This document shows, piece after piece, positions 20,602 to 24,455 of a stretch of DNA of 64,000 bases (the stretch's first letter is position 1; the number at the start of each line of letters is the position of its first letter). Position numbers and translations under genes: made by a program. Location: assembly GCF_041886205.1 (NCBI RefSeq), contig NZ_CP169029.1; one strand, written 5' to 3'. Under the pieces are notes generated by a model. The model had not been told where the DNA came from, did not search any database, and saw only the letters and a list, made by a program, of their open reading frames with translations. The DNA comes from Escherichia coli. GTDB taxonomy: Bacteria; Pseudomonadota; Gammaproteobacteria; Enterobacterales; Enterobacteriaceae.

Positions 20602-22026
20602 TTACTGCATTAACAGGTAGATGGTGCTGTCGCCGCGCTGAATGTTCAGTGCCAGCACAGACGGTTTGCTGTCGAGAACTTTACGCAGTTCAGCGATGTT
20701 TTTCACTGCCTGCTGGTTCGCGCCAATAATCACATCACCTTTCTTCAGGCCGATCTGCGCAGCCGGAGTGCCCGTTTTCACGTTGTTCACTACCACGCCC
20801 TGATCTTTGCCTTTGTTGCTCATCTCAGCACCTTCAATGCCGTTGAAGATGGAGCTGGAATCAACCTGATTCTGGCTGCTCTGCTGCAGTTCCAGATTCA
20901 CGTTGACCTGCTTACCGTCGCGCAGCAAGCCCAGGGTCAGTTTGCTGCCCACCGGCATAGTCCCCACCTGAGCACGCAGTGCGGCAAAGCTGCTGATTGG
21001 CTTACCGTTCAGTGAGGTGATCACATCACCCGCTTTAATGCCCGCTTTTGCAGCGGAGGAATTAGGCAGAACCTGGCTTACGAAAGCACCGCGCTGGGCG
21101 TCAACTTTCATCGCTTTCGCCAGTTCGGAGTTCAGCTCAGTCCCCATAATACCCAGCTCACCGCGTTTCACCTGGCCGTATTCCACCATCTGCGAGGTCA
21201 GGTTTTTCACCATGTTACTCGGGATAGCAAAACCGATACCGATGTTGCCGCCGTCCGGTGCGAGGATCGCGGTGTTGATACCGATCAGTTCGCCGTTCAG
21301 GTTAACCAGCGCACCACCGGAGTTACCACGGTTGATCGCTGCATCGGTCTGGATGAAGTTTTCGTAGTTTTCGGCATTCAGGCCGCTACGCCCCAGCGCA
21401 GAGACAATCCCGGAAGTTACCGTCTCGCCCAGACCAAACGGGTTACCAATCGCTACGGTGTAATCACCCACGCGCAGTGCATCAGAATCCGCCATCTTAA
21501 TTGCGGTCAGGTTTTTCGGGTTCTGGATTTGGATCAGCGCGATATCAGAGCGCGGATCTTTGCCAACCATCTTCGCGTCGAACTTACGGCCATCGCTCAG
21601 TTGAACTTTAATGACCGTCGCGTTATCAACAACGTGGTTGTTGGTGACGACATAGCCTTTATCGGCATCAATGATGACGCCGGAACCCAGCGCCATGAAT
21701 TTCTGTTGCTGGCCGCCACCATTACCGCCCTGGCCACCCTGGCAGAACGGAGAGCTCTGGAACGGAGAACCTTCCTGGCAGAACGGAGAATCATCACCGA
21801 AGAACTGCTGGAAATTACGCGGCATACGCGGCGTATTAACGGTTGTGCTACCTTCTACGTTAATGCTGACCACTGAAGGCATCACCTTTTCGAGCATCGG
21901 TGCAAGGCTTGGCATCTGCTGGGCTGTCGTTGCTGAAGAAGTCTCAGCCGCCGTTGCAGAGAGCGGAGATAACGCCAAACCTAAACTCAGAGCCAGTGCA
22001 CTCAGTGCTAATGTGGTTTTTTTCAT
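20602..22026 (-). CDS. degP: periplasmic serine endoprotease DegP (HtrA), 474 aa
   Basis: Signal peptide, trypsin-like domain with GNSGGAL active site, two C-terminal PDZ domains. Confidence 0.95.
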   Translation of the reverse strand: MKKTTLALSALALSLGLALSPLSATAAETSSATTAQQMPSLAPMLEKVMPSVVSINVEGSTTVNTPRMPRNFQQFFGDDSPFCQEGSPFQSSPFCQGGQGGNGGGQQQKFMALGSGVIIDADKGYVVTNNHVVDNATVIKVQLSDGRKFDAKMVGKDPRSDIALIQIQNPKNLTAIKMADSDALRVGDYTVAIGNPFGLGETVTSGIVSALGRSGLNAENYENFIQTDAAINRGNSGGALVNLNGELIGINTAILAPDGGNIGIGFAIPSNMVKNLTSQMVEYGQVKRGELGIMGTELNSELAKAMKVDAQRGAFVSQVLPNSSAAKAGIKAGDVITSLNGKPISSFAALRAQVGTMPVGSKLTLGLLRDGKQVNVNLELQQSSQNQVDSSSIFNGIEGAEMSNKGKDQGVVVNNVKTGTPAAQIGLKKGDVIIGANQQAVKNIAELRKVLDSKPSVLALNIQRGDSTIYLLMQ

Positions 22027-22071
22027 GTATTTCAGTCTCGATTAACAGATAACGCAAAATTGCTGTGTTCT

Positions 22072-22099
22072 TCAGATTCGTTTTATAGCCTGAAGTTCC
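22072..22099 (-). promoter_or_regulatory. sigma-E-type promoter of degP (-35 GGAACTT / -10 TCTGA)
   Basis: Minus-strand GGAACTT (22099..22093) and TCTGA (22076..22072) separated by 16 nt, about 50 nt upstream of degP ATG; GTAAA pentamers further upstream. Confidence 0.7.
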
Positions 22100-22155
22100 G
22101 AACTAAAGTTTCTGCAAAAGGTAAAAATTTATTGTTCGTCTTTACAAAAGCCTGG

Positions 22156-23673
22156 TTATTGTTCTACGGCCATCAGACGTCGGTATTCATCCCACGCATA
22201 GAGGTCGGTCATACCGCTGATATAATCCTGCAGCAGGCGGCAACGGTAATAATATTCCCATAGCGGAAACTCAGGAGAATCTGACGGTAATTTACTGACA
22301 GCCTCGACATAGGCCAGCCGATGGCGCGTCGAGAGTTTGTGGAATAAGCGCGATTCAATAGGGAAACGTTTCACCCGTTCTTTTTCTACCAGTTCAGTAA
22401 AGTCTGATAACGACAGGCTTAATAAAGGACGATAAGTCTCTAATAATCCGCTAATGACCCGATAGCCCTGCAATTCAAGCTGCTCGACATCTGGATGGCT
22501 AAACACATGTTTTACAGCGACATTTTTATATAGCTTAAGAAGATCGCTGCATTCGCTGGCATCTTCCAATAATGCATGATTAAACGTTCCGGCGAAAATC
22601 GCAGGCAGATTATCAATAAATCGTTGTGCCGCGTAGGGTACCAGTTTATTTAGGGTGTTTACTCGTAAATACATAAAAAACTGATCTTCCGTACTGCGGC
22701 TTAAACTATTTGAGCGTGATTTTTCCCAGGCATTTTCAACCACTAGCGAAAAGAGCGAACCTTTCTCATGCTGGCCCCACGCTTCGTGCAAATGATGATA
22801 AAGCTGCTCAACGGTAAATATTCTTTTCTCTACCGCATCTTCAAGGTCTGCCACACAATAGGAGATGTCGTCGGCAGCTTCCATAATCCACGTTAATGGA
22901 AAACGACTGTAAAGCGCCAAATTAAGTTCTTTACGCAACCGCGCAATATAGGCTTCTTCAGAAAGATAATAACCCGGCTTTTTCATTAAATAGTGATGTG
23001 TCTCAGGCGTTTCGCCACGCCACCACGCCGGACGGGTATATTTTAAAATACCGCCAACCTGTGCCCAGGTGAGATTCATCCGCATCAATGTATGCACCAG
23101 ACGAATGCCTTGTGCATTCCCCTCAAAATGACATAAGTCCTGACGAATCTTGCGCCGCAGCTCGTTAAGCGGTTCTTCCCCGTCCCGTAAACGTAGTGCC
23201 GCCACGCTGCAGCGATCGTCAGTCAGAGGCTGGCTTTCGGCATCTTCCGGGTGCAAACGTTGGCGAAACCAGTCATTTATCGCTGCTTCGCCAAAATGAC
23301 CAAACGGCGGATTGCCGATATCGTGCATCAGGCATGACATCTCAACAATGCTTTCAAAGGGGCCGGTCAGTTCATCCAGGCCGTATGCTTCCAGCAATTT
23401 AAGCTCTTTCAGACGGCTTAAAATTTCTTTGGCGATGTAGCGTCCCACCTGCTGGACTTCCATCGAGTGGGTAAGACGCGTGCGCACGGCGGCATTGCGC
23501 TCCAGTGGAAAAACCTGGGTCTTTTGTTGCAGACGACGAATTGCCGGAGAGTTGATGATACGCCCGCGATCGCTCTCGAAGATCCGCAGGATCTCATGTT
23601 CGGTTTTAACGCCCTGCGGTGAACGGTAACGACGATGCCAGTTTATTTTTTTTCGGAAATCAATCTGTGCCAT
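22156..23673 (-). CDS. dgt: dGTP triphosphohydrolase Dgt (505 aa)
   Basis: HD-domain phosphohydrolase (...[13 protein letters not shown]...); position between degP and mtnN. Confidence 0.95.
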
Positions 23674-23756
23674 GTCCTCTCCCGCGTGAGAAATACGCTT
23701 CCCCGTAAGCGCATGGTAAACTATGCCTTCAAATCGGGCTTATCGCGAGTAAATCT

Positions 23757-24455
23757 ATGAAAATCGGCATCATTGGTGCAATGGAAGAAGAAGTTACGCT
23801 GCTGCGTGACAAAATCGAAAACCGTCAAACTATCAGTCTCGGCGGTTGCGAAATCTATACCGGCCAACTGAATGGAACCGAGGTTGCGCTTCTGAAATCG
23901 GGCATCGGTAAAGTCGCTGCGGCGCTGGGTGCCACTCTGCTGTTGGAACACTGCAAGCCAGATGTGATTATTAACACCGGTTCTGCCGGTGGCCTGGCAC
24001 CAACGTTGAAAGTGGGCGATATCGTTGTCTCGGACGAAGCACGTTATCACGACGCGGATGTCACGGCATTTGGTTATGAATACGGTCAGTTACCAGGCTG
24101 TCCGGCAGGCTTTAAAGCTGACGATAAACTGATCGCTGCCGCTGAGGCCTGCATTGCCGAACTGAATCTTAACGCTGTACGTGGCCTGATTGTTAGCGGC
24201 GACGCTTTCATCAACGGTTCTGTTGGTCTGGCGAAAATCCGCCACAACTTCCCACAGGCCATTGCTGTAGAGATGGAAGCGACGGCAATCGCCCATGTCT
24301 GCCACAATTTCAACGTCCCGTTTGTCGTAGTACGCGCCATCTCCGACGTGGCCGATCAACAGTCTCATCTTAGCTTCGATGAGTTCCTGGCTGTTGCCGC
24401 TAAACAGTCCAGCCTGATGGTTGAGTCACTGGTGCAGAAACTGGCACATGGCTAA
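23757..24455 (+). CDS. mtnN: 5'-methylthioadenosine/S-adenosylhomocysteine nucleosidase (232 aa)
   Basis: [25 protein letters not shown]...; PNP/UDP phosphorylase family. Confidence 0.95.

Follow-up and report, generated by a model that had tools for sequence, protein, structure and literature searches.

The 129 bp between dgt and degP (htrA) in Escherichia coli raise the question of whether an envelope-stress control region can be recognized, and its promoter placed, from the letters of the DNA, and of which parts of such a region would answer to sigma-E, to CpxR and to temperature. The question was addressed in a stretch of 64 000 nt from E. coli (contig NZ_CP169029.1), referred to below as the window, in which positions 22027-22155 are the dgt-degP intergenic region and degP lies on the minus strand. 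Our analysis indicates that this is almost certainly the classical control region of E. coli degP (htrA). Within it, sigma-E RNA polymerase would bind GGAACTT (-35) and TCTGA (-10), set 16 bp apart, and would start transcription at A22066 to give a 40-nt leader. Phosphorylated CpxR would boost transcription from upstream, most likely from a conserved block at -83..-46 that contains GTAAAGACGAACAAT. In the leader, a fourU hairpin may pair UUUU with the Shine-Dalgarno GAGA and so add a temperature-sensitive step to translation, which has been shown in Salmonella and which we infer, and predict to be weak, in E. coli.

The locus and the sigma-E promoter

The coordinates of the control region and its neighbours are collected in Table 1. 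A 601-bp query centred on the dgt-degP gap was identical (100 %) to many complete E. coli genomes; it was present in 5424 of 5426 genomes and was annotated there as dgt | degP. Across the control region the minus strand reads ...TTCGGAACTTCAGGCTATAAAACGAATCTGAAGAACACAGC... and a scan of positions 21800-22500 found no intrinsic terminator after dgt, so that read-through from dgt into degP is possible. A separate intergenic sigma-70 promoter is not supported, as a consensus scan over the same positions gave no site on the degP strand.

Table 1. Features of the dgt-degP control region and the adjoining genes, in coordinates of the window
Feature	Position	Strand	Evidence or remark
dgt (dGTPase) CDS, 505 aa, upstream neighbour	22156..23673	-	NCBIfam NF003429, 895 bits; RefSeq annotation
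Published CpxR box 'degP2', GTAAATTACCGTCAG, inside dgt (-229..-215)	22281..22295	-	PMC9600279 Table S1; outside 22027-22155
dgt-degP intergenic control region	22027..22155	-	Between dgt stop (22156-22158) and degP ATG (22026-22024)
Conserved upstream block, 38 bp (-83..-46), TTTTGTAAAGACGAACAATAAATTTTTACCTTTTGCAG	22112..22149	-	At least 90 % identity at most columns; 106 unique sequences, about 25 genera
Published CpxR box 'degP1', GTAAAGACGAACAAT (-79..-65)	22131..22145	-	De Wulf 2002 via PMC9600279 Table S1; strongly conserved across species
Second GTAAA, inverted (TTTAC on degP strand, -59..-55)	22121..22125	+	At least 90 % conserved; A/T-rich tract, UP-element distance
Sigma-E -35 element GGAACTT (-33..-27)	22093..22099	-	Exact consensus match; at least 80 % conserved per position in 106 unique orthologous sequences
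Spacer, 16 nt	22077..22092	-	First 4 nt (CAGG) variable; CTATAAAA (22088..22081) conserved; TAAAAC at 22085..22080
Sigma-E -10 element TCTGA (-10..-6)	22072..22076	-	3 of 5 positions match TCAAA consensus; T, C and final A kept
degP transcription start, +1 = A	22066	-	MG1655 TSS 180844; also position 1 of Rfam leader model match
degP 5' leader with RF02700 match	22021..22066	-	77 bits against gathering score of 52, E = 1e-14, model positions 1-46 of 46
fourU hairpin in leader	22062..22033	-	UUUU 22059..22056; Shine-Dalgarno GAGA 22039..22036
degP (htrA) CDS, 474 aa	20602..22026	-	NCBIfam NF008189 equivalog, 935 bits; RefSeq annotation

One E. coli strain, 2017-19-1CC (NZ_AP027854.1), carries a 768-bp IS1 directly after the dgt stop, flanked by a 9-bp target duplication, TAACCAGGC (22150-22158 in the window). 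The insertion falls exactly within non-conserved bases and leaves the conserved degP block (22149 downward) intact, while separating the degP control block from dgt and from the CpxR box inside it.

A preliminary description of this DNA had placed a sigma-E promoter pattern, GGAACTT-N16-TCTGA, at 22099..22072 on the minus strand, and the pattern is present there exactly as described, with the right coordinates. The 64-kb window holds a single copy, and 100 dinucleotide-preserving shuffles yielded none. When the pattern was relaxed to GGAACTT-N16-TCNNA with one mismatch allowed, six matches were found in the window against 3.2 expected, the degP site being the only perfect one.

The same description had pointed to the mapped transcription start site (TSS) as the check on these hexamers. 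For MG1655, degP has a single entry, at position 180844, with a 40-nt leader and the -50..+1 sequence TGCAGAAACTTTAGTTCGGAACTTCAGGCTATAAAACGAATCTGAAGAACA (Kim et al. 2012, PMC3415461 supplement). This published 51-mer matches 22116..22066 of the window exactly, which sets +1 at A22066; the start thus falls five bases past TCTGA and agrees with the hexamers. The discriminator between TCTGA and +1 is AGAAC, 5 nt long, and the start is a purine. Sigma-E promoters combine a -35 GGAACTT and a -10 TCAAA with a strongly preferred 16-nt spacer (range 15-19), a discriminator of 5 or 6 nt and a purine start (Rhodius et al. 2006, PMC1312014), and the 16-nt spacer and 5-nt discriminator of degP have this geometry. 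Against the fit stands the -10 element, in which TCTGA agrees with TCAAA at only three of five positions, yet TCTGA is the conserved form at degP. The start at A22066 also coincides with that of the Salmonella transcript with a 40-nt 5' UTR, which is seen under stress (PMC5602114).

Conservation was assessed in loci retrieved from contigs of one genome per species by a degenerate DNA pattern for the DegP N-terminal peptide. This gave 120 loci, sampling about 25 genera of Enterobacteriaceae together with Serratia, and 107 of them had a usable orthologous upstream region. The motif nGAACnn-N16/17-TCnnA was found at the same distance from the ATG in 104 of the 107, and exact GGAACTT-N16-TCTGA in 69; among the 104 orthologues with the motif, the spacer was 16 nt long in 101 and the -10 element was TCTGA itself in 94. 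A column profile of the 106 unique sequences showed conservation of the -35 and -10 elements, of CTATAAAA and of most of the leader, with variation in the first four spacer bases and in the 6 bp that follow the dgt stop (22155..22150). Taken with the upstream block, this profile is a clear phylogenetic footprint of a composite control region.

The motif as searched was absent from only three of the 107 loci. Two of these are from Buttiauxella and carry GGAACTT-N17-TCTAT, in which the final A of the -10 element is replaced; in the third, a Pluralibacter metagenome-assembled genome, the leader is preceded by unrelated, G+C-rich sequence, and this points to a rearrangement. Where the spacer begins (22089-22092), at positions that are not conserved, the window, which is K-12-like, and MG1655 (Kim 2012) have CAGG; the GTDB representative of E. 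coli, E. albertii, E. whittamii and Escherichia sp. E1V33 have CGCG, and this is a polymorphism. A contig labelled Chryseobacterium sp. 18061 (CACSKA010000010.1) carries a dgt-degP locus typical of Enterobacteriaceae, with a promoter and leader nearly identical to those of Citrobacter sp. 18056 from the same project; contamination or a mislabelled assembly is likely.

The dependence of degP transcription on sigma-E is supported by the sequence, by the mapped TSS, by conservation and by published regulon data: degP belongs to the core sigma-E regulon (PMC1312014), and overproduction of sigma-E raises it 56-fold, the strongest induction of any gene (PMC2731931). The preliminary description had regarded the region as the expected envelope-stress control region and as a positive control for regulatory calls. 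Our results bear this out, since this is the textbook degP region with its promoter placed to the base. With the degP call confirmed by a mapped start and by conservation across about 25 genera, promoter calls of this kind in the window can be trusted.

The window also holds a sigma-E-like site close to consensus, GGAACTA-N16-TCGAA, at 6033-6060 on the minus strand, inside the open reading frame 5154..6551. By its position beside an 806-aa, BamA-sized open reading frame (2704..5124), this frame is presumably rseP. Judged by its motif, the site at 6033-6060 might be a candidate internal promoter for bamA.

The upstream block and the action of CpxR

The preliminary description had further placed GTAAA pentamers, as CpxR-type half-sites, upstream of the promoter at about 22121..22147. 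Both pentamers exist, but on opposite strands (minus at 22141-22145, plus at 22121-22125): they lie 15 bp apart and face each other, an inverted arrangement with no tandem GTAAA-N5-GTAAA. The placing of CpxR-type half-sites upstream is broadly correct: the distal pentamer lies in a published CpxR box, but the other lies in no listed box. GTAAA alone is uninformative, with 172 copies in the window and about 0.35 expected per 129 bp. With up to two mismatches allowed, GTAAA-N5-GTAAA was not found in the intergenic region, and the window as a whole gave 79 matches against 49 expected.

Two CpxR boxes have been published for degP, one upstream of the promoter (degP1) and one inside dgt (degP2); PMC9600279 Table S1, which lists both, gives De Wulf 2002 as their source. 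To score them, a CpxR position weight matrix (PWM) was built from the 39 non-degP sites of that table, for which the median score is 13.8 bits. The degP1 box scored 6.2 bits and ranked 177 of 128k positions, a score that arises about once per 360 bp. Compared with GTAAA-N5-GTAAA it has three mismatches, all of them within the second half-site (ACAAT). The box inside dgt reached 12.2 bits, rank 11 in the window, and the plus-strand 15-mer that begins at 22121 with the inverted GTAAA reached only 1.2 bits. The support of the PWM for the intergenic box is weak, and the motif alone is insufficient to identify degP1.

Across the 106 unique sequences, nearly every position of GTAAAGAC, of ACAAT and of TTTTTAC is at least 90 % conserved. 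The second half of the degP2 box is not conserved across species, and conservation at third positions is 0.50 within the box against 0.53 outside it; a conserved dgt-internal CpxR box was rejected, its conservation being no greater than coding constraint gives. In the upstream block, GTAAA, ACAAT and TTTAC follow one another at exact 10-bp intervals on one face of the helix, a spacing that suits a regulator of the OmpR family.

Published expression data place degP under Cpx control. Activation of Cpx raises degP 27-32-fold (PMC9600279 Table 1), and knockout of cpxR changes it by a log2 of -2.2 to -2.5, a drop of about 4-6-fold (PMC7657598 supplement). Overproduction of CpxR alone did not induce degP, which its authors attribute to sigma-E dependence (PMC2731931). 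Later papers cite Pogliano 1997 and De Wulf 2002 for direct binding of CpxR-P to degP; the CpxR ChIP-exo 'direct targets' in PMC7657598 do not include degP. Control of degP by CpxR is shown in the literature, and it is the exact contacts that we infer.

The first alternative concerns these contacts. The A/T-rich conserved block, and the inverted GTAAA (TTTAC at -59..-55) in particular, may be an UP-like element for the C-terminal domains of the alpha subunits of EsigmaE and not a CpxR site, with CpxR acting through the distal half-site, through the box inside dgt or indirectly. We regard this as rather unlikely, though it has points in its favour. Upstream of sigma-E promoters, Rhodius and co-workers described UP sequences rich in A/T that peak at -48/-49 and -57/-58, and alpha subsites are centred at -43, -53 and -63; AATAAATTTTTACCTTTT covers -67..-50. 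In -65..+20 constructs of the same authors, degP was among the promoters that showed activity at basal sigma-E levels. The score of only 1.2 bits at 22121 and the lack of a reported CpxR ChIP-exo peak at degP also count in its favour. However, the conserved block reaches to -83, past the range of UP elements, and takes in a perfect GTAAA with conservation of at least 90 %; the exact 10-bp periodicity of GTAAA, ACAAT and TTTAC suits an OmpR-family regulator; and the direct binding of CpxR-P credited to Pogliano 1997 and De Wulf 2002 in later papers also speaks against it. We prefer the block as the probable site of CpxR action; within it, TTTAC at -59..-55 could either serve CpxR as a half-site or belong to an A/T-rich UP-like element for the alpha subunit of the polymerase.

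The best CpxR-PWM score of the whole window was obtained elsewhere, by GTAAATCTATGAAAA (16.4 bits) at 23749-23763 on the plus strand. This site lies in the divergent region beside the dgt start (23673), where the neighbour is mtnN in the annotation of locus L001, and it is listed as a predicted CpxR site of dgt at -76 (PMC9600279).

The spacer hexamer and additional starts in related species

The spacer of the sigma-E promoter contains a conserved TATAAAA. In Salmonella, htrA has a second start that gives a 47-nt leader, as well as a start inside dgt that gives a 215-nt leader (PMC5602114). K. pneumoniae has two mapped degP TSSs, of which the start with a 51-nt leader is the stronger. The Salmonella 47-nt and Klebsiella 51-nt leaders both begin at the G of TCTGA, and in both species TAAAAT stands at -12..-7 from that G. 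For E. coli, the TSS table of Kim 2012 (PMC3415461) contains no further degP starts near -47 or -215.

A census of the spacer hexamer in 105 orthologues found TAAAAT in 33 and TAAAAC in 29. The E. coli hexamer is TAAAAC, without the T at -7 of a sigma-70 -10 element. We tentatively suggest, as a possibility that deserves somewhat less than even credence, that TAAAAT (-12..-7) is the -10 element of a second, overlapping promoter of the sigma-70 type that starts at the G of TCTGA, and that Escherichia and some Citrobacter, which carry TAAAAC, are without the critical T at -7. The single start of E. coli would fit the loss or weakening of such a promoter in Escherichia. If this is true, a single change explains why degP has one sigma-E-dependent start in E. 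coli, as against sigma-E-independent expression in its relatives, and the difference between TAAAAT and TAAAAC might also be relevant to which polymerase CpxR assists in a given species. In 2009 Lewis and co-workers reportedly described htrAp2 as a promoter that probably depends on sigma-70, and set Salmonella against E. coli, whose gene has a single promoter.

A second alternative, that the hexamers are a chance match and that another promoter in the region, used by the housekeeping sigma-70 polymerase, drives degP, could draw on the extra sigma-E-independent starts of Salmonella and Klebsiella, 7-9 nt upstream and inside dgt, and on the conserved TATAAAA in the spacer, but it is effectively refuted and hardly credible: the map gives E. 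coli a single TSS, A22066, where the sigma-E hexamers predict it, the TAAAAC of E. coli has no -7 T, the motif is unique in the window and conserved across genera, and sigma-E induces the gene 56-fold. The sigma-E promoter accordingly remains the preferred reading.

Two further observations concern this part of the locus. Escherichia sp. MOD1-EC7003 has TAAAAT, not TAAAAC, in its spacer. Inside dgt, a TATTAT on the minus strand (22254..22249) lies 7 nt upstream of G22241, the equivalent of the Salmonella htrAp1 start, and Salmonella shares TATTAT-N7-G. This TATTAT is at least 80 % conserved, including the third codon positions of two Tyr codons, and the E. coli-specific degP2 CpxR box lies directly upstream, centred at about -47 from G22241; Kim 2012 lists no E. 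coli TSS at G22241.

The leader and comparison with known systems

The HtrA fourU RNA thermometer (Rfam RF02700), which is absent from the preliminary description, fills the 40-nt degP leader. At 30 C the fourU hairpin of Salmonella htrA masks the Shine-Dalgarno sequence, and it unfolds between 35 and 37 C, as shown by SHAPE and reporter work (PMC5602114). The E. coli leader was compared with it by minimum free energy (MFE) and pairing probabilities; the energy of the Rfam-consensus hairpin for E. coli was discarded, as it forces an A-C pair. At 37 C the E. coli leader has an MFE of only -3.0 kcal/mol, which does not improve on that of shuffles (z = +0.94). Predicted pairing of the Shine-Dalgarno sequence is 0.3-0.5 in E. 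coli and 0.96 in Salmonella, and at 30 C the corresponding values are 0.26-0.58 and 0.98-0.99. Covariation of the hairpin gave no signal above shuffles in 77 unique leaders, under an alignment that was not structure-aware, and 74 % of cells were paired, the same as in shuffles. We found no experiment on the E. coli leader in the literature. By sequence the leader is a member of RF02700, and its thermometer activity is predicted by these folding models to be much weaker than that of Salmonella.

Two other RNAs in the window matched Rfam above the gathering score, both on the minus strand: the CssrA sRNA (RF02798, 137 bits) at 12116-12225 and t44 RNA (RF00127, 85 bits) at 13064-13150.

The degP control region, including its sigma-E promoter, is an already known and ordinary feature. 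Its value here is as a calibration point, in that a textbook promoter for an alternative sigma factor was located to the exact base from raw sequence. For annotation, it is useful to record that the CpxR half-sites are not in tandem, that a second published CpxR box lies in dgt and that the leader holds a curated thermometer family. It is also useful to record the conserved -10-like hexamer of the spacer, which differs by one base between E. coli and the species with a second mapped start.

The locus can be set against four known systems. The first is the E. coli degP sigma-E promoter itself, which with rpoH P3 is one of the founding members of the RpoE regulon: the locus and the sequence are the same, and so is the geometry of -35 element, spacer, -10 element and start, with no substantive difference. 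The second comprises cpxP, ppiA, yccA and spy, which are activated by CpxR and carry tandem GTAAA-N5-GTAAA. Like them, degP depends on Cpx for its expression, has a perfect upstream GTAAA half-site and is listed among the known CpxR sites. In contrast to them, it has a degenerate second half-site (ACAAT), and the next perfect GTAAA stands in inverted orientation at a distance of two helical turns; the motif score is low, and the promoter that is activated is a sigma-E and not a sigma-70 promoter.

The third system is the thermometer of Salmonella enterica htrA. The 40-nt leader of E. coli begins at the same base and shares the UUUU:GAGA pairing, the bulged C, the upper stem and the 5-nt loop. 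It differs in having C instead of U at model position 32 (22035), which turns an A-U into an A-C and breaks one pair of the lower stem, and in having U instead of C at model position 38. The fourth comprises the Salmonella promoters htrAp1, p2 and p3 and the two TSSs of K. pneumoniae. The sigma-E promoter (p3) and the 40-nt leader are conserved in E. coli, whereas E. coli has one TSS in the available map, and its p2-type hexamer is TAAAAC where theirs is TAAAAT.
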